A stretch of DNA of 47,797 nt, taken from UHGV virus genome UHGV-0177318. One strand, given 5' to 3'. This stretch comes from a virus. Positions 2,975 to 43,006 of this stretch are shown in pieces; the stretch's first letter is position 1, and every line of letters begins with the position of its first letter. The notes under the pieces were generated by a model, which was not told the origin of the DNA, ran no database searches, and saw only the letters and a program-made list of their open reading frames with translations. The position numbers were made by a program, and so were the translations under genes.

Positions 2975-4298
2975 TCTCCCGCATATTGCCAGCATGGCCT
3001 TCAATGAGCCGCTGATGCTTGAACCCGCCTACGCGCGGGTTTTCTTTTGCGCGCTGGCAGGCCAGCTGGGTATCACCCGACTGACTGATTCCGCTTCTGG
3101 CGTCTCGCTCGGCGCTGAACAAATTGCAGAGCCGCTGGCGCTGTTTGGCGATGACGAGGAAATGGGGCCCCGGCCAGCGCGGAGCTATCAGGTAACAAAC
3201 GGGATCGCGGTGCTGCCCGTTTCCGGGACGCTGGTCAGCAAAACCCGGTCACTGCAGCCTTATTCCGGTATGACGGGCTATAACGGGGTCATTGCCCGAC
3301 TGCAGCAGGCAATGAGTGATCCCGGCGTAGACGGTATTCTGCTGGATATGGACACGCCGGGCGGGATGGTGTCCGGGGCTTTCGATTGTGCCGACATTAT
3401 TGCCCGGATGCGGGATATCAAGCCCGTTTGGGCGCTGGCAAATGATATGAACTGCAGCGCAGGGCAGCTAATTGCCAGTTCTGCATCGCGACGGCTTGTC
3501 ACGCAAACGGCCAGAACCGGCTCCATCGGCGTCATGATGGCGCACAGTAATTATGGCGCTGCGCTGAAAACTAACGGCGTTGAGGTCACGCTGATTTACA
3601 GCGGCGATCATAAAGTCGACGGAAATCCCTACGAAAAACTACCAAAGGACGTTCGCGCTGATTTTCAGACGCGTATCGATGCCACTCGTCAGATGTTTGC
3701 CGAAAAGGTTTCCGCTTATACCGGAATGTCAGTGCAGGCCGTACTGGACACCGAAGCGGCCGTCTTCTCCGGCCAGGAGTCCGTGGATAACGGTCTGGCG
3801 GATGAACTTGTTAACAATACCGACGCGCTCAGCGTGATGCGTGAAGCACTCGACAGACGCAAAAAAACAACCACTGGAGGAACTATGCCATCACCTTCTG
3901 CATCTGCAGCGACCAATCAGCCAGCTGACCAGGCAGCAACACAGACGACTGCACCGGCTGAGCAGGTCACCACCGTTGACACAACAACTGCTGCCTTAAC
4001 GGCCCCGGCAGACCTCAGCGCTCAGGTATCGGCAGCCGTAGCTGCCGAGAATGGTCGCATCATGGGTATTCTGAACTGCGAAGAGGCAAAAGGTCGCGAA
4101 TCACAGGCCCGTGCGCTGGCCGAAACGCCGGGCATGACGGTCGAGAATGCACAGCGCATTCTGGCCGCGGCGCCGCAAAGCGCCCAGGCGCGTACCGATA
4201 CGGCGCTGGATCGCCTGATGGAAACCGCGCCAGGCGCTCTTTCAGCAGGGAATGCCTCTGCTGAAGCTGGCGACGATTTGTTAAACACCCCCGTTTAA
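2955..4298 (+). CDS. C: Head maturation protease / scaffold (lambda gpC with nested Nu3)
   Basis: 447 aa. The N-terminus [39 protein letters not shown] and the S49/ClpP-like core (LLDMDTPGGMV, NCSAGQL) match lambda gpC. The C-terminal part (AAENGRIMGILNCEEAKGRE...LLNTPV) corresponds to the in-frame nested scaffold Nu3, whose internal start I did not delimit. Confidence 0.92.
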   Translation: MTPELRNLPHIASMAFNEPLMLEPAYARVFFCALAGQLGITRLTDSASGVSLGAEQIAEPLALFGDDEEMGPRPARSYQVTNGIAVLPVSGTLVSKTRSLQPYSGMTGYNGVIARLQQAMSDPGVDGILLDMDTPGGMVSGAFDCADIIARMRDIKPVWALANDMNCSAGQLIASSASRRLVTQTARTGSIGVMMAHSNYGAALKTNGVEVTLIYSGDHKVDGNPYEKLPKDVRADFQTRIDATRQMFAEKVSAYTGMSVQAVLDTEAAVFSGQESVDNGLADELVNNTDALSVMREALDRRKKTTTGGTMPSPSASAATNQPADQAATQTTAPAEQVTTVDTTTAALTAPADLSAQVSAAVAAENGRIMGILNCEEAKGRESQARALAETPGMTVENAQRILAAAPQSAQARTDTALDRLMETAPGALSAGNASAEAGDDLLNTPV

Positions 4299-4307
4299 GA
4301 GGCTAAC

Positions 4308-4640
4308 ATGGCAATCACCGAAGTATTTACTCATACCCAGCCGCTCGGTAACAGCGATCCGGCACACACCGCGTATGCACCGGGCGAACTGACAGCATCC
4401 ACCCCGGCAATGACCCCGCTCATGCTCGATGTTACGTCCGGCAAGCTAACCGTCTGGGACGGCGAGCATGCAGGTGCAGCAACCGGCATTCTGGCGGTTA
4501 CCGCTGACCAGAGCAGTGCTGAACTGGCATTTTATAAATCCGGTTCTTTCCGCATCGAAGATGTGCTCTGGCCGTCTGCCGTTACCGACGAAAATATCAA
4601 GCGTAACGCGTTCGCCGGTACTGCGATCAGCATCGTTTAA
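4308..4640 (+). CDS. D: Head decoration protein (lambda gpD-like)
   Basis: 110 aa, the same length as gpD. Shared motifs: [37 protein letters not shown]. Confidence 0.93.
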
Positions 4641-4657
4641 TCACCCTCAACTTTCAT

Positions 4658-4682
4658 AAAAGCCGCTTATGCGGCTTTTTTT
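4658..4682 (+). terminator. Intrinsic terminator-like hairpin between D and E
   Basis: aaaaGCCGC-ttat-GCGGC followed by a T7 run. It overlaps the longest-ORF start at 4669, which supports the internal E start at 4696. Confidence 0.6.
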
Positions 4683-4695
4683 ACGGGAAAAATCT

Positions 4696-5721
4696 ATGTC
4701 AGTTTACACAACAGCCCAGCTTCTGGCGGTCAATGAGAAGAAATTCAAGTTCGATCCGCTCTTCCTGCGTATCTTCTTTCGCGAAACTTATCCCTTCAGT
4801 ACAGAAAAAGTCTACCTGTCGCAAATTCCGGGCATGGTCAATATGGCGCTGTACGTATCGCCGATTGTCTCCGGGAAAGTGATTCGTTCCCGTGGTGGCA
4901 GCACGTCGGAATTTACGCCGGGGTATGTGAAGCCAAAACACGAAGTGAATCCGCTGATGACCCTCCGCCGCCTGCCTGATGAAGATCCACAGAATCTGGC
5001 CGACCCTGCCTATCGCCGCCGACGCATCATTCTTCAGAACATGAAAGATGAAGAGCTTGCAATTGCGCAGGTAGAAGAAAAGCAGGCCGTTGCTGCAGTC
5101 CTCAGTGGTAAATACACCATGACCGGGGAAGCGTTTGAGCCGGTTGAAGTTGATATGGGACGCAGTGCCGGTAACAACATCACCCAGGCGGGTGCAGCTG
5201 CCTGGTCTTCTCGCGACAAAAAAACGTACGACCCGACCGATGATATTGAAGCGTACGCGCTTAACGCCAGCGGTGTGGTCAACATTATCGTCTTCGATCC
5301 AAAGGGCTGGGCGCTGTTCCGCTCCTTTGACGCGGTGAAGGAAAAGCTGGATACGCGTCGCGGTTCAAGCTCTGAGCTCGAAACCGCCGTAAAAGACCTG
5401 GGAATGGCCGTCTCATATAAGGGGATGTATGGCGACGTTGCCATCGTTGTGTACTCCGGTCAGTACATCGAGGATGACGTCAAAAAGAACTACCTGCCGG
5501 ATCTGACAATGGTGCTGGGAAATACCCAGGCGCGCGGTCTGCGTACCTATGGCTGCATTCTGGATGCAGATGCACAGCGCGAAGGCATTAATGCTTCAAC
5601 GCGCTATCCGAAAAACTGGGTGCAAACGGGCGACCCGGCTCGCGAGTTCACCATGATTCAGTCAGCTCCGCTGATGCTGCTGCCAGATCCGGACGCGTTC
5701 GTTTCAGTCAAGCTGGCATAA
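4696..5721 (+). CDS. E: Major capsid protein (lambda gpE-like)
   Basis: Starting at MSVYTTAQLLAVNEKKFKFDPLFLRIFFRETYPF gives 341 aa, the same as lambda gpE (MSMYTTAQLLAANEQKFKFDPLFLRLFFRESYPF). The track start at 4669 lies inside the D/E hairpin. Confidence 0.95.
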   Translation: MSVYTTAQLLAVNEKKFKFDPLFLRIFFRETYPFSTEKVYLSQIPGMVNMALYVSPIVSGKVIRSRGGSTSEFTPGYVKPKHEVNPLMTLRRLPDEDPQNLADPAYRRRRIILQNMKDEELAIAQVEEKQAVAAVLSGKYTMTGEAFEPVEVDMGRSAGNNITQAGAAAWSSRDKKTYDPTDDIEAYALNASGVVNIIVFDPKGWALFRSFDAVKEKLDTRRGSSSELETAVKDLGMAVSYKGMYGDVAIVVYSGQYIEDDVKKNYLPDLTMVLGNTQARGLRTYGCILDADAQREGINASTRYPKNWVQTGDPAREFTMIQSAPLMLLPDPDAFVSVKLA

Positions 5722-9050: not shown

Positions 9051-12000
9051 CGATCTGGTTATTAAGCTGGATGTTGACCGCGCAACCTTCAGCGAGCAGG
9101 TCGCCCGAATCAAAGGGCAACTGACAGGAATGGCGGATGAGTCTGATAAAGTTCAGGCGCGAATGCAGCGTGCTGCGGACCGTCAGAGCGCTGCACTAAA
9201 GAGCGTGGGCGACGCTGGCGCGGCGGCCGCCGCAGACATGAAAGCCCGTCAGTCAGCCGCAACGGAAGGGCTGACAAAAGACTGGCAGAACGTTTCCAGG
9301 TCCGTTGATGAAACTCATCGCCGCGTGACCGAACTTAACCAACGCATGCGTGAGAATGACGGACAGGCTGCAGCGCTTGCCCGCCGACAGGATGAACTGG
9401 CGGCATCATTTTTCCGCCAGATTGACGGCGTTCGCCAGCTCAATGGTGAAACACAGTCGCTTGCGAACGTGCAGGCGCGCTTTCGCGCAGCGAGGGCACA
9501 GGGCAACATAACCCAGCAGGATTATCTCGCCCTTATTTCCCGCACCACGGCCCGGCAAAAAGAACTGCAGATCGTGGAGGAAAAATCGGCCGCAGCGCGC
9601 ACGCGATTCCTCAGCCAGCTGAAGCAACAGGTTGCAGAGCAAAAGCTCTCCGGTACCGAGCTGCTGCGCATGAAGGCGGCGCAGGTCGGTGCCAGCGATG
9701 CGGCTGAAGTTTATATCCGCAAGCTTGAAGCTGCCAAAGTGGCCACGCACGGTCTGGGGCTGCAAAGTGCTGCTGCCCGGCAAGAGCTGGGGGTACTTAT
9801 CGGCGAGGTCATGCGCGGTAACTTCGGTGCGCTGCGCGGCTCCGGGATCACACTGGCGAACCGGGCAGGATGGATAGACCAGCTGCTGTCGCTGCGCGGG
9901 CTTGGGATCGCCGGCTTGGTTGGTGGGATTGCCGCGGCGGTATTCGGACTGGGTAAGGCCTGGTATGACGGCAGCAAAGAGTCTGAGGAATTTAACAGGC
10001 AGCTGATCCTGACCGGGAACTACGCGGGGAAAACGTCAGGGCAGCTGCAGGCGCTGGCGCGCTCGCTGGCAGGTAATGGCATCACGCAGCATGCCGCTGC
10101 AGGCGTGCTGGCGCAGGTCGTTGGCAGCGGCGCGTTCAGCGGGAATGACGTCAGCATGGTCAGCAATGTTGCCGCCAGGCTGCAGCAGGCTACCGGACAG
10201 GCCGTCGACGAAACCATAAATCAGTTTAAGCGCCTGAAGGATGATCCGGTTAACGCGGTCGCGACGCTCAACGATTCCCTTCATTTTCTGACAGCCACCC
10301 AGTATGAACAGATAGCTTCTGCTCAGGCGCTGGGGGATTCTCAGAAGGCCGCCGAGCTGGCCATGCGGGCATATTCCGACGCGGTCATTCAGCGCGCCGG
10401 TGCGGTCGAGGATAATCTCGGAACCCTCGAAAAAGCCTGGAACTGGGTGAAGAATGCCGCCTCCGGTGCGTGGGATGCGATGCTTGGCATAGGGCGTAAT
10501 CCTGACACCGCGATGAAGCGCCAGGACTCTTTTGCTGAATGGCAGGCAGCAGAGAAGGAGTACCGCGCGCTTTCCAGCAATCTTAAGGTCGACCCGGATT
10601 ATGCCGGTAACAACGTTCTGCAGAAAGCTGATGCGGAAAGGCTGAGAAACGCGCGCCAGCAGGTGGAGCTGAAAAAGCAGGCTTACGATCTTGCCGATCA
10701 GCAATACGCTCAGGAAGGGCTGGCAGCCGCGCGGGAAAAAATGCGGACAGACCAGCAGGCTCAGGCAATCCGCAACCAGCAGCAGTTTAACCAGCTGGTG
10801 GAGTCCGGCGCGACGGCGGCAGAAAAGCGGGCTTCAGCAGAGAAAAAGCTCAGTCAGCTTATTGAGAAAAACCGCCAGGATGCGAAAGACGGTGTCGCCA
10901 CGCTGTGGACTGAAAAGGACATTGCCGCGGCCCGCGCCGGGATTGAAAAGCAGTGGAAAGATCCAAAAACGCCGAAAGGCAAAAGCTACTCAACGCCCGC
11001 CGGGGACAAAGCAGAGGAAAAGGCGCAGGCCGAACTTCTCACCCTTCAGGCCCAGCTTAAAACGCTTGAGCAGCATACCAGCGTGAATGACGTCATAAGC
11101 AAACAGCGTCAGGATCTCTGGCAGACTGAAAATCAGTTCACCGTTCTGCAGGAGGCTGCAGGGCGTCGTCAGCTTACGGCGCAGGAAAAATCCCTGCTGG
11201 CGCACAAGGAAGAAACGCTCGAGTACAAGCGGCAGCTGGCCGATCTGGGCGATAAGGTTGCCAGCCAGCAAAAGCTCAACCAGCTGGCCGATCAGGCCGT
11301 GAAGTTTGAGCAGCAGCAAAAAGCGGCCAGGGCGGGTCTGCAGGCTCAGTCTGAGGGGGTATCCACCCGGGAAGCCGGGCGACAAACTACGCTGCAGCGT
11401 CTCAGCGAAAGCTATTCGTACAACCCTCAGGCGCAGCAAAAGGTTCTCGAAGAGCAAAGGGCGACGTTCGAGGCTGAAGATGCTCTGCGCGCAAACTGGC
11501 TGGCCGGTGCGAAACAGGGCTGGGCCGAATATCAGGATTCAGCGACAAACGTTTTCAGCTCTGTTCAGCAGATTTCGCAGGCTACGTTCAGCGGGCTGGC
11601 GGGCCAGCTTACCAGCCTGACGACAACCGGGAAGGCGAGCTTCAGGGACTTCACCAGCTCGATCCTTAAAATGATAGTGTCCGTTATCAACCAGCTGCTG
11701 GTGGCTTACACCATCCAGAGCGCAATGGGCTGGGTTAGCGGCGGGGCGAAAATCTCCTCTGCAGGTCAGTCATTCGCGGTCCCGTCATACCGGCCACAGG
11801 GTTTTGACGTGGGCGGTTTTACCGGGCACGGCGGCAAGTACGAGCCAGCCGGTATCGTTCACCGCGGGGAATTCGTCTTCACCAAAGAATCAACCAGCCG
11901 TATCGGCGTGGCTAATCTCTATCGCCTGATGCGCGGGTATGCCTCGGGTGGTCTGGTCGGCGGCGGTAGCGCAGCCGGTGCTGGCATGGGCGGGATCAGT

Positions 12001-22094: not shown

Positions 22095-23363
22095 ATGTTC
22101 GCGCTCTGTGATGTGAATTCGTTCTACGCATCATGCGAGACGGTGTTTCGGCCTGATTTGAGGGGGCGCCCGGTTGTCGTTCTCTCGAATAATGATGGCT
22201 GCGTAATTGCGCGCAGCGCCGAGGCCAAAGCCGCCGGAATTACCATGGGTGAGCCTTTCTTCAAGCAAAAGGAGCTTTTCCGGCGCGCTGGCGTTGTTTG
22301 CTTCAGCAGCAATTACGAGCTGTACGCTGATATGTCGAACCGGGTAATGACGACGCTGGAAGAAATGAGCCCTCGCGTCGAAATATATAGCATCGATGAA
22401 GCTTTTTGCGACCTTACTGGTGTTCGAAACTGCCGGGACCTGACAGAGTTTGGCAAAGAGATCCGCGCGACGGTTCTGAAGCGTACGCACCTGACTGTCG
22501 GGATTGGCATCGCGAAAAGTAAGACCCTTGCAAAGCTGGCAAATCACGCCGCCAAAAAATGGCAGCGTCAGACGGGCGGAGTTGTTGATTTGTCCAATAT
22601 CGATCGCCAGCGTCGGTTGTTGGCTATTGTGCCTGTGGAGGACGTATGGGGCGTCGGCAGGCGCATCAGTAAGAAGCTGAACGCCATGGGCATCAAAACG
22701 GCTCTGGACCTCTCAGAACAAAGCACATGGATTATCCGTAAACACTTTAACGTGGTACTCGAGCGAACGGTCCGGGAGTTGCGCGGCGAGCCTTGTCTTG
22801 ATCTGGAGGAGTTTGCACCAGCTAAGCAGGAAATCGTCTGCAGTCGGTCATTCGGTGAACGCGTTACCGAATACGAACAGATGCGGCAGGCTATTTGCAG
22901 CTATGCGGCGCGTGGTGCTGAAAAGCTTCGCGGCGAACATCAGTATTGCCGTTTTATCTCTGCGTTCGTGAAGACGTCACCTTTTGCCCTGAACGAGCCG
23001 TATTACGGCAACAGCGCGTCAGTGAAGCTTCTCACCCCCACTCAGGATTCCCGCGACATCATCAACGCCGCGGTAAAGTGCCTGGACAAAATCTGGAAGG
23101 ATGGGCACCGCTATCAAAAGGCTGGAATTATGCTGGGAGATTTTTTCAGTCAAGGGGTGGCACAGCTGAACCTTTTCGATGAGCACGCGCCGCGCGCTGG
23201 AAGCGATAAGTTGATGGATGTGCTCGATCACTTGAACGCGAAAGAAGGGAAAGGAACACTCTTCTTTGCCGGGCAGGGCATTCAACAGCAGTGGCAGATG
23301 AAGCGGCAGTTGCTTTCACCCCGATATACTACTCGCATATCAGATTTATTAATTGTGAAGTAA
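22095..23363 (+). CDS. umuC: UmuC, Y-family DNA polymerase V catalytic subunit
   Basis: 422 aa. [41 protein letters not shown]..., the same length and N-terminus as E. coli UmuC. Confidence 0.95.
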
Positions 23364-23388
23364 AAAGGCTGCTTAACGCAGCCTTTTT
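23362..23388. terminator. Bidirectional intrinsic terminator between umuC and the convergent Zn-ribbon ORF
   Basis: AAAAAGGCTGC-ttaac-GCAGCCTTTTT, with A5/T5 flanks that serve both strands. Confidence 0.8.
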
Positions 23389-23394
23389 AGTTAA

Positions 23395-23544
23395 TTAAGC
23401 AGCTTTTTTCTCGCTGCATTTGCAATGAGGGATAACAAAAACTTTCGCCTTTTTAGGGCGGATGATTTTACCATCCTTCATTACATAGGGCGTGAAGGTT
23501 ACTTCACACGAATTCCCACATTTTGGACAATAGCCAGTTTTCAT
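23395..23544 (-). CDS. Small (49 aa) Zn-ribbon-like protein, probably LexA-regulated; absent from the ORF track
   Basis: MKTGYCPKCGNSCEVTFTPYVMKDGKIIRPKKAKVFVIPHCKCSEKKAA (CxxC...CxC). SD GGAG lies 8 nt upstream of the ATG, a CTGT-N8-ACAG box 26 nt upstream, and a terminator downstream. Confidence 0.55.
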   Translation of the reverse strand: MKTGYCPKCGNSCEVTFTPYVMKDGKIIRPKKAKVFVIPHCKCSEKKAA

Positions 23545-23569
23545 GTGAGATCTCCTATGTAAATGTACA

Positions 23570-23589
23570 GCCTGTAAATCTAAACAGAT
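23570..23589 (-). promoter_or_regulatory. LexA-like box upstream of the 49-aa ORF
   Basis: gcCTGTAAATCTAAACAGat. The core is perfect and the flanks are non-consensus. Confidence 0.55.
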
Positions 23590-23697
23590 TGCACCTTGTT
23601 AGGAGAACCACTATACTTTTAGCCGTCAAGCATTTTGTGTAGCGGTAGATTTCTCCATACACACCGAGTTATGCGTCAACATAGCTCGCCCCCTAAG

Positions 23698-23723
23698 AAG
23701 CCCTGCGTCAACAGGGCTTTTTT
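23698..23723. terminator. Terminator hairpin after the XRE/ImmA operon
   Basis: AAGCCCTG-cgtcaa-CAGGGCTT immediately after the ImmA stop, with a T6 run on the + side. Confidence 0.55.
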
Positions 23724-24205
23724 CAATAAAATTCAAAGCAAAGCTGTGCTGTTTGATAGCCCAATTTATCGAGCATCGTTTCTGCGAAAAGATCCGCCTG
23801 CCATTCAGAATCTTCATTTTGTTCCGGCATGGCATTCGCAAAGTGTAAGGCTGGCTTATGTTGTAGTAGCAAGTGCCCGAGCTCATGGAATATAACAAAT
23901 AACGCTGATCGTTCACCGCCACATGCCATTTCATAGATATGGTTTGGAACCCTGATAGTCAGTTTGTCAGGTTCACAGTGTCCAATCGTTAGACCCAGCG
24001 TTTCCTGAAACCATTCGTCATCATCCATTGGATCGAGGACAATATTCCATTGAGATAATGTTTCCAGCGCTACGTCAAATCTGCGCGGTCTACGCCGGTA
24101 TTTATACTTACTAGTAAATCCGAGTGCAAAGCAAGCATTTACAGCTATCGCTTTAATTTCCATTTCACTCAGAGGACGAACACGTGTACCGCGCATTAAA
24201 TGCAT
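23723..24205 (-). CDS. ImmA/IrrE-family zinc metallopeptidase (COG2856)
   Basis: 160 aa with HEXXH in VIFHELGHLLLQH. It lies immediately downstream of an XRE HTH gene, the canonical ImmR/ImmA-type pairing. Confidence 0.8.
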   Translation of the reverse strand: MHLMRGTRVRPLSEMEIKAIAVNACFALGFTSKYKYRRRPRRFDVALETLSQWNIVLDPMDDDEWFQETLGLTIGHCEPDKLTIRVPNHIYEMACGGERSALFVIFHELGHLLLQHKPALHFANAMPEQNEDSEWQADLFAETMLDKLGYQTAQLCFEFY

Positions 24206-24222
24206 AACAGTTTCCTAAGCAG

Positions 24223-24582
24223 TTATTTTTTGTTGATTTCTGCAAGTAATTCTGCAAATTTTTTTAATTCTTCATGGGTGAATTCCGATTTTGCAAAACC
24301 AGCAACAAGCATTTGTTGTTGCTTTGGTAAACCTTCAATAGGTACCAATTCATTCGCGATAGAAGCTAAAACATCGAGATCATCAATGTAATAACCTTGC
24401 GCTGCAAAAAGTTCATTGATTGCCGTTACCCATTTCTCTGGTATTTTTTTAGTCCCTGTTTCGAGCCCGCTTAGAAAAGCAGGTGTTGTTCCTAAAGCCT
24501 TTGCCATTGTAAGCAAAGTATAACCAGTATCGATCCGAGCTTTCCTTACGGCCTTTCCGAAATCAGTAAGAGCCATAGTCAT
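24223..24582 (-). CDS. XRE-family helix-turn-helix transcriptional regulator
   Basis: 119 aa. The N-terminal FGKAVRKARIDTGYTLLTMAKALGTTPAFLSGLETG is a Cro/CI-type HTH. Confidence 0.8.
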   Translation of the reverse strand: MTMALTDFGKAVRKARIDTGYTLLTMAKALGTTPAFLSGLETGTKKIPEKWVTAINELFAAQGYYIDDLDVLASIANELVPIEGLPKQQQMLVAGFAKSEFTHEELKKFAELLAEINKK

Positions 24583-24681
24583 ATCCTCAGTGCTTTCATT
24601 GTGGCTTACGCCAGATGTTCTAAATATACTCTAACCATAAAAAAAGTAAACTCATCAAGAAAAATAAATTAACCAAAAAGG

Positions 24682-25353
24682 TTAAGTTATTATTTCTATT
24701 AGATTTTTACCTTGATTTCTGGCGTTTCCAACCGCGCGTGTAACAGCGTGCCAGATAAACTTGTCGGCAGGCACTGCGCCGTCGGCTGCTATCTCTTCAG
24801 CTTCTTTCCCGCCTATATCCTGACGTATCCACTCGCGAGCCGCTTCCGGTGACAGAACCAGTGGCCGGCGATCGTGAATATCGACCAGACCTTTATCAGC
24901 TGCAGATGTCACGATGAGAAAACCTTCAGCTTCGTCTCCACGCTCAAATGGTGTGCTGCCGATAGCCGCCATAAATATTGGCTGGCCGTCGGCCCGGTGA
25001 ATGAAGTAGGGCTGTTTCTTGTCTGCTTCCTTCTTCCATTCGAACCAGCCATCCGCAAAGCAGATCGCCCGGCCATGTTGCCAGAGAGGCTTGAACATTC
25101 GGCTGGTGGCCGCCGTCTCGACGCGTGCGTTAATCAGTGGCGGTTTATCCCACCACTCGGGCGCGTAAGACCACAGGACTGGATCAAGATGCAGCTGCTC
25201 GTTGCGTTCGCTCAGGAGCAGCACCTTGGTACCGGGCGAGACGTTGTACCGGCCTATAGGTTCCGGGTCATACGCAATGTCACGATCGGCTTCATCGGCC
25301 AAGTATGCCAGATATTCTTCACGGGTTTGGGCTTGTGCAAAACGTCCACACAC
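24682..25353 (-). CDS. yedK: SOS-response-associated peptidase (SRAP/YedK-like abasic-site processing protein)
   Basis: 223 aa starting MCGRFAQAQTREEYLAYL (catalytic Cys2). It is colinear with E. coli YedK as I recall it (PLINARVETAATSRMFKPLWQHGRAICFADGWFEWKKE...). Confidence 0.9.
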   Translation of the reverse strand: MCGRFAQAQTREEYLAYLADEADRDIAYDPEPIGRYNVSPGTKVLLLSERNEQLHLDPVLWSYAPEWWDKPPLINARVETAATSRMFKPLWQHGRAICFADGWFEWKKEADKKQPYFIHRADGQPIFMAAIGSTPFERGDEAEGFLIVTSAADKGLVDIHDRRPLVLSPEAAREWIRQDIGGKEAEEIAADGAVPADKFIWHAVTRAVGNARNQGKNLIEIIT

Positions 25354-25533
25354 AGGAACCTCCAGTCAGTAAGACTGAAAGTATAGGGCAGGGAGAAAAA
25401 GTAGTGTGCGCTGGTTAAGTCCTACAAACGGATTCGCGCTGATTATGCTAATGAGGATGAAATGCGTAAAGCGATGCGTTGTGAAACTGGAAGGAGCTAC
25501 GCAAAGTTGCGACAATGCCAAAAGAGAAAGCTA

Positions 25534-25972: not shown

Positions 25973-26029
25973 GTAAGAAAACTACCAATAAAAAAACCAG
26001 CCATAAGAGGCTGGTTTTCAATGTATTTT

Positions 26030-26129: not shown

Positions 26130-26149
26130 GACTGTATATGCAAACAGTG
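26130..26149. promoter_or_regulatory. LexA-like box in the attP arm between the core and int
   Basis: gACTGTATATGCAAACAGTg, with a perfect CTGT-N8-ACAG core. A TTGACT hexamer overlaps its left edge. Confidence 0.5.
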
Positions 26150-33390: not shown

Positions 33391-34017
33391 TTAGAGTTCG
33401 TACTGAACGCCTTTAACTACGCCAATAATGAGGCAGTTACCATTGATCGGGATGTTGGGGTAGCGAGGATTTAGTGGGACTAAAAATTTTTGTGGGCCAT
33501 CAATGACCAGTTTTTTAACAGTCGCTTCGTTAGTGCCATCAATACGCGCAACAACAATCTTGCCATGAAGGGGTTCGGCATCTGGATCAACAATAACGGT
33601 TGCCCCTTCAGGGATTGTTGGGAGGCCATTTGGATTGGTCATTGAATCCCCTTTGACCTCTAAAGCGAACGAGCTATCCCCAATGCGTAGTGATGTTTCA
33701 ACCCATTTATCAACATCACTGAATAAATCAGCGGCCTTACATTCCGTAAACTGCCCAGCTTGAACCCAGGAAATCACGGGCACACGCCTCATTTTAGTTA
33801 TGAGGGTACCTTCAAATTCAGTGCCGTAAAGAATGTAATCTATTGATGTATTGAAGAATTTAGCCAGCTTAACCAGCGATTCTCCGTTTGGGATATTCAC
33901 ATCCTTTTCCCAATAACCCACCGCTACGTCACTAACCCCGCAGAACTTACCCAGTTCTTTTTGAGAGGTTTTTGTAACCCTGCGTAGGGCTTTAATGCGC
34001 TGACCAACCGTTTCCAT
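33391..34017 (-). CDS. cI: CI-type prophage repressor (XRE HTH + S24 LexA-like self-cleaving domain)
   Basis: 208 aa. HTH QKELGKFCGVSDVAVGYWEKD, Ala-Gly site in SWVQAGQF, Ser/Lys dyad GDSM ... VKKL. Divergent from cro. Confidence 0.9.
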   Translation of the reverse strand: METVGQRIKALRRVTKTSQKELGKFCGVSDVAVGYWEKDVNIPNGESLVKLAKFFNTSIDYILYGTEFEGTLITKMRRVPVISWVQAGQFTECKAADLFSDVDKWVETSLRIGDSSFALEVKGDSMTNPNGLPTIPEGATVIVDPDAEPLHGKIVVARIDGTNEATVKKLVIDGPQKFLVPLNPRYPNIPINGNCLIIGVVKGVQYEL

Positions 34018-34116
34018 GAAAGCACCAAATTTAAAAAAGACTAAGTAATCTTAGTTTTTATTGACCAAAGTTAGATTGGTTATTAATATCTAACCAAACT
34101 TAGCTAAGGAGGCTTC
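34018..34116. promoter_or_regulatory. OR / pR / pRM divergent control region
   Basis: Palindromes ACTAAGTAATCTTAGT (34040..34055), GTTAGAT-N11-ATCTAAC (34070..34094) and CTTAGCTAAG (34099..34108). Candidate pR: -35 TTGACC (34061..34066), 17 nt, -10 TAATAT (34084..34089). Confidence 0.6.
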
Positions 34117-34332
34117 ATGACAACCGACGAGATTGAACAACATTTCGGCAGCACTGAGAAAGTTGCCGAATTTTTTGGCATCACCAGTGAGGCCGTTTAC
34201 CAGTGGCGTAATCGCCCCGGACGCTTAATCCCTAAAGGACGAGCTGCTGAAGCTGCGTATCGAACTGCTGGTGAACTGGAATTCAACCCAGAACGTTATG
34301 GCAAGAATACATCGCCTAACGATCAGAAATAA
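34117..34332 (+). CDS. cro: Cro-type repressor (P22 Cro-like)
   Basis: 71 aa. IEQHFGSTEKVAEFFGITSEAVYQWRNR..IP parallels P22 Cro (VIDHFGTQRAVAKALGISDAAVSQWKEVIP). SD AAGGAGG. Confidence 0.8.
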   Translation: MTTDEIEQHFGSTEKVAEFFGITSEAVYQWRNRPGRLIPKGRAAEAAYRTAGELEFNPERYGKNTSPNDQK

Positions 34333-34354
34333 CCACAGAAGGGAGGACCTAGCC

Positions 34355-34903
34355 GTGGGTATAGAACCTGAATGGAAAGTAGATAAGCAGCCAGCCTGGC
34401 TGGTGGCCGCAATCAAAAAAACGATCACCGAGCTGCCTGGCGGATATTCAGAAGCTGCTGAGTGGTTGGGTGTGACCGAGAACGCGCTGTTTAACCGGCT
34501 GCGTACCGATGGTGATCAGATCTTCCCGCTCGGTTGGGCGATGGTGCTTCAGCGTGCTGGTGGTTCAAACCACATCGCGAACGCTATTGCACGTCACTCG
34601 AACGGTGTTTTTGTGCCATTGGCTGATGTTGAAGAGATTGAGAACGGCGATATCAACCAGCGTCTCATGGAGTCAGTTGAGTGGATCGGCAGGCATTCGC
34701 AATACGTTCGTAAAGCTACCGCTGACGGCGTTATTGATGCTCAGGAACGCGCCCAGATCGAAGAGAACAGCTATCAGGTGATGGCTAAGTGGCAGGAACA
34801 TTTGACGCTGCTTTTCCGTGTGTTTTGCGCGCCGGAAAAGAGTGACGCCCGCGAGTGTGCAGCTCCGGGCGTCGTGGCAGACAAATCTTGTATGGAGAAG
34901 TAA
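34355..34903 (+). CDS. CII-like regulatory protein (CP76/YmfL-like family, tentative)
   Basis: GTG 34355 is preceded by GGGAGG with an 8-nt spacer, right after the cro stop. 182 aa. Family call from memory of YSEAAEWLGVTENALFNRL-type HTH proteins at this position. Confidence 0.5.
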   Translation: MGIEPEWKVDKQPAWLVAAIKKTITELPGGYSEAAEWLGVTENALFNRLRTDGDQIFPLGWAMVLQRAGGSNHIANAIARHSNGVFVPLADVEEIENGDINQRLMESVEWIGRHSQYVRKATADGVIDAQERAQIEENSYQVMAKWQEHLTLLFRVFCAPEKSDARECAAPGVVADKSCMEK

Positions 34904-41953: not shown

Positions 41954-43006
41954 ATGAAAAATACTGTAAATATAAACAGTGTTGAGCTTGTCAACGCTGA
42001 CTGCCTGCAATACCTCGCAACCCTCCCAGATAACACCATCGACCTTATTGTTACGGATCCGCCTTATTTTAAGGTGAAGCCGAACGGCTGGGATAATCAG
42101 TGGAATGGTGACGCCGACTATCTTCGCTGGCTTGATATGTGTCTTGCCCAGTTCTGGCGAGTGCTTAAGCCTGCCGGCAGCCTGTATTTGTTTTCAGGTC
42201 ACCGACTTGCATCCCATATTGAGATCATGATGCGTGAACGCTTCAACGTCATGAACCACATTATCTGGGCGAAGCCATCAGGGCGCTGGAACGGGTGTAA
42301 TAAAGAAAGCCTGCGCTCTTACTTTCCCGCGACGGAACGCATCCTTTTCGCTGAGCATTATCAGGGGCCATATAAGCCGAAAAGCGACGGATTTGCTGAG
42401 AAAAGCAACGAGGTCAAACAGCACGTCATGGCTCCGTTAATCACCTACTTTCGGGAAGCACGAGCCGAACTGGGGGTCACGTCCAGGCAAATAGCTGACG
42501 CCACCGGAAAGAAAAATATGGCGTCTCACTGGTTCGGTGCCAGTCAGTGGCAACTACCGAACGAGCAGGATTACGAAAAGCTGCAGGAATTGTTCACTCA
42601 GATCGCCATTGAGAAGCACCGCGCCTCTGAACTCAAAGCACCGCATCACCAGCTGGTGGCCACATGGCATTCGTTGAACCGGAAATACCTTGATCTGCTG
42701 GAAGAGTACAAATCTCTTCGGCGGCATTTCTCTGTGACAGTAGCCGTGCCCTATACAGACGTCTGGACACATAAACCCGTCCAGTTCTATCCAGGCAAAC
42801 ACCCGTGCGAAAAGCCCGCTGATATGTTGCGGCAAATCATCAACGCCAGCAGCAGGCCCGGCGATGTGGTAGCTGATTTCTTTATGGGCTCGGGATCAAC
42901 TGTTAAAGCAGCCATTGAACTGGGCCGCCAGGCTATCGGCGTAGAACTGGAAGAGGAACGTTTCAACCAGACGGTAAGTGAGGTAAGGCAGCTGGCAGGG
43001 GAATAA
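41954..43006 (+). CDS. Beta-class N6-adenine/N4-cytosine DNA methyltransferase (DPPY, N6_N4_Mtase family)
   Basis: 350 aa. NADCLQYLATLPDNTIDLIVTDPPYF (motif IV first), then the C-terminal HPCEKP and FFMGSGST (motif I). Confidence 0.88.
   Translation: MKNTVNINSVELVNADCLQYLATLPDNTIDLIVTDPPYFKVKPNGWDNQWNGDADYLRWLDMCLAQFWRVLKPAGSLYLFSGHRLASHIEIMMRERFNVMNHIIWAKPSGRWNGCNKESLRSYFPATERILFAEHYQGPYKPKSDGFAEKSNEVKQHVMAPLITYFREARAELGVTSRQIADATGKKNMASHWFGASQWQLPNEQDYEKLQELFTQIAIEKHRASELKAPHHQLVATWHSLNRKYLDLLEEYKSLRRHFSVTVAVPYTDVWTHKPVQFYPGKHPCEKPADMLRQIINASSRPGDVVADFFMGSGSTVKAAIELGRQAIGVELEEERFNQTVSEVRQLAGE
41962..41981 (+). promoter_or_regulatory. LexA (SOS) box overlapping codons 3-10 of the DPPY methyltransferase
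   Basis: TACTGTAAATATAAACAGTG, one base different from the dinI box at 25858. Confidence 0.75.

Follow-up and report, generated by a model that had tools for sequence, protein, structure and literature searches.

Why would a phage that already has a CI-type master repressor carry a second set of repressor-like and protease genes elsewhere in its genome? This question is raised by the UHGV virus genome UHGV-0177318, which we analysed as one stretch of 47,797 nt (hereafter, the window). On its minus strand, an open reading frame (ORF) for a 119-aa protein of the XRE family with a helix-turn-helix (HTH) domain is followed, after a gap of 17 nt, by an ORF for a 160-aa peptidase with the motif FHELGH, just as an initial annotation made from the letters alone had described. 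The pair had also been placed outside the immunity region, and indeed a CI-type protein with HTH and S24 domains is encoded ~9 kb away (33391..34017), with a CII-like gene adjoining it (together 33391-34903); the pair is thus a second HTH/protease set. The three functions then considered were a damage-responsive sub-switch for neighbouring cargo, a relic of another element's immunity module, and a defence or toxin-antitoxin (TA) module. The gene pair itself is ordinary and has been annotated before. The pair is real, but the unit to which it belongs extends beyond two genes to three genes plus a conserved structured RNA, arranged in the order operator/promoter, XRE repressor gene, M78 peptidase gene, structured leader RNA, mini-protein gene and terminator. 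Our preferred reading, to which we assign a probability of roughly 0.45, is that this cassette forms a self-contained repressor-peptidase switch of the ImmR/ImmA, DdrO/IrrE and CapH/CapP kind, the output of which would be a riboregulated mini-protein.

With regard to the first gene, homologues of the XRE protein are 117 aa long and begin MALT..., and a GAGGA Shine-Dalgarno (SD) sequence is found 7 nt 5′ of the second ATG. Because of these two features the true start is most likely at 24576, giving a product of 117 aa and not the 119 aa first assumed. The HTH assignment itself holds, with Pfam and an alignment of homologues placing the HTH at residues 6-58 and a conserved domain at residues 60-117. 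The matches to HTH_31, HTH_3 and HTH_19 (E 1e-4 to 2e-3) fell below the family cut-offs, but a profile of XRE homologues matched HTH regulators in the PDB (ClgR, E 1e-6) as well as 9sf2_A, a 129-aa chain titled 'transcriptional regulator' (E 8e-5). A 100% match to the XRE protein is present on an Enterobacter wuhouensis contig. For the second gene, the profile search was above its cut-off and confirmed the proposed membership of COG2856/M78 (Peptidase_M78, PF06114, 28.7 bits against a cut-off of 22). The catalytic H107-E108-x-x-H111 and an acidic cluster (E131/D132/E134) are invariant in an alignment of 22 peptidase homologues, and an AlphaFold2 (AF2) model forms one compact domain (predicted local distance difference test, pLDDT, 86.5), the best Foldseek matches of which are the peptidase domains of PprI/IrrE (8sln_A and 3dte; probability 1.0, TMq 0.49). 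An identical sequence is listed at NCBI as 'MULTISPECIES: ImmA/IrrE family metallo-endopeptidase [Enterobacteriaceae]'.

We gathered 150 related loci, drawn from 4 annotated phages, 66 species-representative genomes and 80 of 112 IMG/VR matches. In 146 of these 150 loci the M78 gene lies directly 3′ of the XRE gene with a spacing of ~18 nt, and the pairing is therefore far beyond chance. The surroundings are not shared to the same extent. When flanking ORFs were clustered over 120 distinct cassettes, no flanking family occurred in more than 16 of the 120, no conserved divergent neighbour of the pair was found (in the window, yedK is located upstream on the same strand) and no RmrT-like gene was found near the cassette. 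Neighbours with SOS functions are seldom nearby (umuD in 13, umuC in 8, SRAP in 9 and dinI in 4 of 146 loci). The sites occupied by the cassette also differ among Mu-like, lambdoid and other phages: it follows Mor in a Pasteurella Mu-like phage, adjoins int in Pseudomonas phage H66, lies near SppA and dinI in a Klebsiella phage, and is found in the Nin region of an Escherichia coli O113:H21 prophage. Given its non-conserved neighbours and differing insertion sites, the cassette is an autonomous mobile unit (a 'moron'), and that the window has it within an SOS island is incidental.

The subfamily is widely distributed, with 66 matches among 185,579 species-representative genomes, 112 in IMG/VR and a related cassette in ~1% (54/5426) of complete E. 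coli genomes, prophages of Shiga toxin-producing E. coli among them. In 112 of 113 cassettes, conservation is higher for the XRE protein than for the peptidase (median identity to the window 63% vs 44%), a pattern unlike that of immunity repressors and unlike that of typical antitoxins. The O113:H21 prophage (FWSEC0010, our locus L151) carries its cassette at 3060-4740, adjoining the type I toxin gene hokD. In its RefSeq annotation, the XRE and ImmA/IrrE genes are present and both the leader and a 49-aa ORF are unannotated.

Upstream of the pair, the inverted repeat TTAACC-N5-GGTTAA had been put forward as a possible operator. Phylogenetic footprinting argues for a conserved predicted operator at this repeat, with its position corrected to 24669..24685 from 24671..24687. 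The consensus TTwACC-N5-GGTTrA scores at least 11/12 in 94 of 120 distinct upstream regions vs 5 of 626 background windows, and the palindrome is located 60-150 nt upstream of the XRE start in cassettes ranging from Enterobacter to Vibrio, Pasteurella, Caballeronia and Variovorax. Its right arm coincides in part, in most loci, with a -35 hexamer (GGTTGAAT), and a TAnAnT -10 element follows after 16-18 nt. A different palindrome is seen in Pseudomonas loci, where the XRE protein is only ~46-53% identical. In the clade of the window, the promoter TTTACT-16-TATATT is found 18 nt downstream of the operator. A promoter scan did recover this previously proposed element (24650..24623), but such matches were as frequent in shuffles (5 found, 5.2 expected), and our support for the candidate comes from conservation of the same -35/-10 arrangement in three related loci (L006, L007 and L013) and not from scan frequency. 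No LexA box was found upstream of xre or yedK in the window. Since no second good copy of the operator was found in the whole window either, the XRE protein of this phage appears to regulate its own operon only.

The third gene is the 'Zn-ribbon ORF' of the initial annotation, situated on the same strand downstream of the M78 gene, and its identification as a possible target is the part of the sub-switch proposal that survives. By tblastn, the mini-protein ORF is present in 82 loci, and nearly all remaining loci have a basic ORF of 31-50 aa in the corresponding position; its median distance from the M78 stop codon is 183 nt (about 170-250 nt). Versions with cysteines are found in enterics, Vibrio and Pasteurellaceae, and cysteine-free versions in Pseudomonas (MTYTDERGTFILRWSRRLKNGHIQRAVGKPFKIYIK) and Burkholderiales (...VIYRMTITVKGRVIRRPDGRPFRIVLR); both kinds align on a shared core consisting of a strand, a K-N-G-K turn, a strand, a K-x-G-K loop and a strand. 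Among 51 distinct gap-free sequences, diversity is 0.56 at third codon positions vs 0.31-0.32 at positions 1 and 2, and the ratio of synonymous to non-synonymous codon differences is 0.57 in frame vs 0.08-0.09 in the other frames. This third-position diversity and in-frame synonymous excess show the mini-ORF to be a real gene under purifying selection.

No family in Pfam, NCBIfam, PHROGs or PADLOC matched the mini-protein, nor did a profile of its family find anything among PDB sequences. Its AF2 model (pLDDT 77.8) is mostly beta strand. A set of 5.8 billion proteins contained only 7 clusters of it, and a set of 1.84 billion contained ~20 small standalone representatives. Domain fusions were sought and discarded, the large matches being repetitive giant proteins. 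Some betaproteobacterial cassettes have another type of small ORF (..VHVRAY.R.R.G..E.VC.HCRS.P..), either instead of or besides the mini-gene; because it sits after a KNGK-type mini-gene in three of these loci, the third position may hold exchangeable small genes.

The spacer between the M78 gene and the mini-gene is 155-245 nt long over the loci and nearly always accompanies the pair. One spacer sequence family accounts for 68 of 146 loci (50 distinct; enterics, Rheinheimera and others). We examined covariation with an explicit four-helix structure (H1 to H4) on 46 distinct leaders, using slid-partner controls and 500 shuffles. In this test, 90.9% of leader cells were paired vs 32-47% in the slid-partner controls, 21 pairs had changed on both sides vs 7-12, and the covariation score was 0.245 vs 0.05-0.08; none of the 500 shuffles reached the observed pairing values. 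Because G·U pairs are frequent on the coding strand (e.g., GU:29 at one invariant position), the structure belongs to the sense transcript. A covariance model of this leader, R1, scores 122 bits in the window (23562..23724) and 159 bits in the E. coli prophage, and the minimum free energy (MFE) fold of the window leader has a z-score of -3.3. A comparison with Rfam gave no leader match in the window at E up to 5 and none at the gathering threshold in the spacers of 12 loci. Extending R1 to Vibrio, Pasteurellaceae, Pseudomonas and Burkholderiales loci failed, these clades being undetected by the model; they have their own leaders of 155-245 nt, in which a hairpin at the M78 stop comes first and compensatory changes are seen (19/20 pairs in the Pseudomonas group). 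A short upstream ORF in the leader (ATGGAG...) was rejected, its frame being broken by indels between loci.

Helix H1 is the hairpin after the peptidase gene (23698..23719) that had been taken for the terminator of the operon. The hairpin is real and conserved: 78% of cassettes have a stable one where the M78 gene stops, vs 9% of control windows. However, only 2-4 U follow it on the sense strand, and because of this H1 looks like a leaky attenuator that doubles as the first helix of a longer structured leader. The strong terminator (23358..23392) is located after the mini-ORF, as is an equivalent one after the small ORF of the L151 prophage. Neither by scan nor by eye was a sigma-70 promoter for the mini-ORF found in the spacer of the window. 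The most economical interpretation is that all three genes are transcribed as a single unit, with a leaky stop inside it.

Two alternative pairings within the leader bear on the control of the mini-gene. In one, an invariant GGAG (23653-23656) pairs with an invariant CUCC (23602-23605) to form the outer part of H3, the inner part of which covaries (AU:19, GC:18 and GU:7 at one pair). The MFE fold of the window instead pairs UUCUCCU (23601-23607; the anti-SD) with the SD sequence AGGAGA of the mini-ORF (23551-23556), and the GGAG is then in a local hairpin. The anti-SD is paired downstream with the SD in 36 of 46 leader MFE folds, and anti-SD:SD duplexes of at least 5 bp are found in 78% of leaders vs 27% of controls. 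When each of the 46 leaders was forced into one state or the other, the energies of the two folds were 2.3 +/- 2.8 kcal/mol apart. These predictions fit a bistable leader that would hide or expose the ribosome-binding site of the mini-gene. A single column-wise structure for the OFF hairpin was dropped, its register differing between subgroups, and this state was assessed per sequence by energy only.

Two further observations concern the leader. H1 and H2 end in tips (the loop with its closing pairs, 10-nt TG-N6-CA; 23665-23719 in the window) that are the same for both hairpins in 28 of 46 leaders although the stems differ, with a mean of 8.2 tip nucleotides shared within loci vs 3.2 in a between-locus control. 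Comparison between loci gives at least 8 tip variants, and among these are pairs in which one is the exact reverse complement of the other (TGTTGACGCA vs TGCGTCAACA). The agreement within loci suggests either that some partner recognises the two tips together or that they arise through hairpin-driven copying. No complementary target in cis was found for the tips, and co-variation of tip sequence with the mini-protein was not seen (L002 vs L115). The second observation comes from a Providencia rustigianii locus (L008, 6860-7520), in which the leader and small ORF are tandemly duplicated as a block, marked by hairpin tips at +10/+38 and +357/+385 and by a LexA-like palindrome at +129 and +476, all counted from the M78 stop. 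Because the two are duplicated together, this suggests that leader and mini-gene form a sub-module.

How might these parts work together? In a lysogen, an XRE dimer would sit on the single operator and keep the operon low, and the leaky H1 together with the UUCUCC:SD fold would allow hardly any mini-protein to be made. The M78 peptidase would respond to a signal by cutting the XRE protein in its conserved C-terminal domain, much as ImmA, IrrE and CapP cleave their cognate repressors. The promoter would then open and read-through increase, and the leader would switch to its alternative fold (H3, GGAG:CUCC), freeing the ribosome-binding site for synthesis of the mini-protein. The latter would be the output (effector) of the switch, and might act in exclusion or abortive infection, in growth arrest, or in host or phage regulation. 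The proteins have what a repressor-M78 switch calls for, namely an M78 domain with HEXXH and a downstream acidic ligand, and an adjacent XRE-HTH protein with a C-terminal domain.

Several points weigh against this proposal. What the sequences show directly is the layout of the cassette with its conservation and mobility, the operator motif, the RNA structure and coding selection on the mini-ORF. We infer the functional steps, from repression by the XRE protein and its cleavage to read-through, the SD switch and the mini-protein as effector, and the last of these is a positional argument, no significant structural neighbour having been found for the mini-protein model. The peptidase, at 160 aa and with a single compact modelled domain, lacks the GAF and HTH sensor domains of CapP and IrrE. 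Complementarity between anti-SD and SD is partly inherent to SD sequences, and the energy gap between the two leader states is within the error of the method. In addition, the LexA-type palindrome present in many leaders (see below) might mean separate SOS control, with the mini-gene acting upstream of the peptidase, and an autoregulated HTH gene placed first with an enzyme second also fits a TA pair.

Comparison with known systems helps to place the cassette. Similar to the ImmR/ImmA systems of ICEBs1 and phi105 in Bacillus subtilis, it consists of an XRE-HTH gene followed by a small single-domain M78 gene in an autoregulated operon on a mobile element, and the window peptidase is close in size to ImmA, which has ~169 aa in ICEBs1 and is likewise without a GAF domain. 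However, ImmR is the master repressor of excision and transfer genes. In the window, the master repressor is a separate S24 protein of the CI type, the XRE protein has one operator, located at the promoter of the cassette itself, and a conserved leader RNA and mini-gene come after the peptidase; here, moreover, the cassette varies in position and the hosts are Proteobacteria. The CapH/CapP paper states that RecA or RapI mediates the response of ImmA. CapH/CapP itself gives the best, though weak, matches in PADLOC (capP 1e-4, capH 2e-4), and CapP is the nearest solved protein to the peptidase by sequence (7t5t, E 0.07). In both systems the operator either covers the -35 element or sits immediately upstream of it, and the parallel that we propose is a repressor with an HTH and a C-terminal domain being cut by an M78 peptidase, which would switch on an adjacent, potentially harmful output. 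In contrast with the window peptidase, CapP has 291 aa, a GAF domain and a cysteine-switch loop that sense single-stranded DNA. As described in PMC13228613, CapP and IrrE sense single-stranded DNA in a groove between the peptidase and the C-terminal GAF domain; the 160-aa peptidase has no such C-terminal GAF groove and lacks the HTH of IrrE. Furthermore, capH/capP is divergent from the operon that it regulates and shares its promoter region, whereas no conserved divergent neighbour exists here and the presumed output is co-directional, placed behind a leaky hairpin and structured leader, and a single protein of ~40-50 aa. DdrO/IrrE (PprI) of Deinococcus offers the closest fold for the peptidase, and DdrO, like CapH, shares the HTH plus C-terminal domain layout of the XRE protein. 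Yet IrrE has an extra HTH and GAF domain, and DdrO runs a chromosomal repair regulon via many operators and is not part of a mobile cassette.

In the searchable literature, the coverage of which does not extend to subscription-only papers, we found no description of the three-part arrangement or of these accessions, and the combination of a conserved operator, a leader RNA absent from Rfam and an unannotated mini-protein family in one fixed cassette would thus be previously undescribed there. More tentatively, the cassette could represent an undescribed class of phage-borne sensor-effector systems, in which a riboregulated mini-protein (~40-50 aa) is gated by a minimal M78 peptidase and a hyper-conserved XRE protein. 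This mini-protein would belong to a new family, some versions of which are Zn-clasped and others free of cysteine. The leader would then be a new cis-regulatory RNA with twin tips read by a co-evolving partner, and the mini-protein an exclusion or abortive-infection effector or a new lysogeny regulator. We consider this fuller picture possible, though less likely than not.

Of the rival explanations, the one that fares best, although we consider it doubtful, retains the TA option of the initial annotation: the M78 peptidase would be the toxin, or a Lit-like abortive-infection protease, the XRE protein its autoregulating antitoxin and the mini-protein an accessory. Xre-COG2856 pairs have been predicted as TA modules (PMC2701414), and one has been studied as such in Brucella (PMC10538038). 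The same two domain families occur in neighbouring genes here, as they do, fused, in RmrA of Rosmer; one source labels the homologue P0051 'Toxin-antitoxin system'; gene order and a palindromic operator at the promoter are those of TA operons; and weak matches to Lit and to spr1629-type antitoxins were obtained. Yet the similarity to Lit does not go beyond residues 103-145 around HEXXH, and RmrA, too, is matched only weakly (E 7e-4 to 0.04); RmrA is a fused protein with RmrT as its partner, and no RmrT-like partner is present here. The putative antitoxin is, moreover, more conserved than the putative toxin in almost every cassette, the reverse of what is typical for TA pairs, and the conserved leader and third gene are left unexplained.

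A further rival, which we rank next and hold to be unlikely, turns the mini-protein from output into input. Under SOS conditions it would be induced via the LexA box or boxes and activate the sensor-less peptidase, leading to XRE cleavage, so that the cassette becomes a LexA-triggered amplifier. Indeed, one perfect (CTGTAAATCTAAACAG) and one imperfect LexA-type box lie directly upstream of the mini-ORF in the window, which has perfect LexA boxes also before umuD and dinI. CTGT-N8-ACAG is found in 37 of 46 type-1 (enteric-type) leaders without any covariation within the enterics, and the peptidase has no sensor domain. However, no promoter overlapping the box was found when the mini-ORF leader was scanned, leaving LexA with nothing to repress. 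The palindrome coincides with RNA helix H4, and two variants follow the helix and not the box: Pantoea has the compensatory CCGT..ACGG, by which the stem is kept and the LexA site destroyed, and Rheinheimera has a different stem. The palindrome is also absent from the cassettes of other clades, and the cassette would be left without any output besides itself. A dual constraint on H4, or a role of its palindrome as a roadblock, is possible.

Two readings are very unlikely. Control of the SOS cargo has in its favour that the cassette is embedded among umuDC, yedK and dinI and that its operator overlaps the yedK stop codon, but the neighbourhood statistics above led us to reject it for yedK, umuDC and dinI alike, given also that umuD and dinI have their own LexA boxes, that yedK lies upstream of the operator with a candidate promoter of its own, and that the phage has only one operator. 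Just as improbable is a relic of another element's immunity module conferring heteroimmunity, suggested by the resemblance to ICEBs1 and phi105 immunity, since the XRE protein and operator are almost unchanged in more than 100 phages that span many genera, none of the three genes is disrupted and each is under selection, and the cassette, variable in position, is never beside lytic or early operons. The remaining probability goes to something else altogether.

Several other features were noted along the way. The SRAP/yedK gene (24682-25353) has no LexA box despite its family name 'SOS response-associated peptidase'; its candidate promoter is TTTACG-17-CATAAT at 25442-25470, and its stop codon is inside the XRE operator. 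A perfect LexA box, CTGTATATGCAAACAG, occupies 26132-26147, flanked by the dinI terminator (25992-26019) on one side and by the 3′ end of the integrase gene on the other; no gene that it might control is evident, and attP may be nearby. Another perfect LexA box, CTGTAAATATAAACAG, occupies the first codons of a DNA methylase ORF (box 41964-41979; ORF 41954-43006, PF01555). Among the related loci, an IMG/VR contig (L118) has a type II hammerhead ribozyme (3259-3332, 63.8 bits) ~1.7 kb upstream of its cassette, and Klebsiella phage ST13-OXA48phi12.4 (L002) has an STnc100 small RNA (9565-9768, 82 bits).

Table 1. Features of the cassette in the window, and loci with the other small-ORF type.
Feature	Position	Strand	Evidence or remark
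Operator, perfect inverted repeat TTAACC-N5-GGTTAA, predicted XRE binding site	24669..24685		Overlaps yedK stop codon
Candidate sigma-70 promoter TTTACT-16-TATATT	24623..24650	-	Promoter scan; half-site-like GGTTTAC over -35; putative function
XRE-family HTH protein, 117 aa	24223..24576 (alternative start 24582)	-	N-terminal HTH and conserved C-terminal domain of ~55 aa
Single-domain M78 (ImmA/IrrE, COG2856) zinc metallopeptidase, 160 aa	23723..24205	-	Pfam, alignment, AF2, Foldseek
Structured leader RNA	23545..23722	-	Alignments, RNAalifold, covariation, covariance model
Leader helix H1	23698-23719	-	
Leader helix H2	23665-23688	-	
Leader helix H3	23602-23656	-	
Leader helix H4	23572-23587	-	
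Anti-SD UUCUCCU	23601-23607	-	
Mini-ORF SD AGGAGA	23551-23556	-	
Perfect LexA-type palindrome CTGTAAATCTAAACAG	23572..23587		Coincides with leader helix H4
Second LexA-like box, 1 mismatch	23555..23570		Adjoins the first, touches the SD; restricted to the clade of the window
Gene for the 49-aa mini-protein, basic and beta-rich, Cys-clasped (CxxC...CxC)	23395..23544	-	Conservation, coding signature, AF2
Bidirectional intrinsic terminator GGCTGC-N5-GCAGCC with T-run on both strands	23358..23392		Ends the cassette after the mini-ORF; convergent umuC on the other strand
Other small-ORF type (betaproteobacterial loci)	L039-L041, L044-L046, L052, L057-L061, L065, L066; also L055, L067, L069		

XRE and ImmA/IrrE pairs are annotated by the thousands and are usually dismissed as 'second repressors' or putative TA pairs. 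Our analysis indicates that one large and widespread subfamily of them has a fixed hidden partner, consisting of a structured RNA outside Rfam and a mini-protein missed by gene callers, and it adds an operator motif, an RNA family and a family of small proteins to what can be annotated. If the mini-protein is indeed the output, the cassette would serve as a compact model for the triggering of M78 peptidases that lack a sensor, and the mini-protein may be a new small effector of phages.

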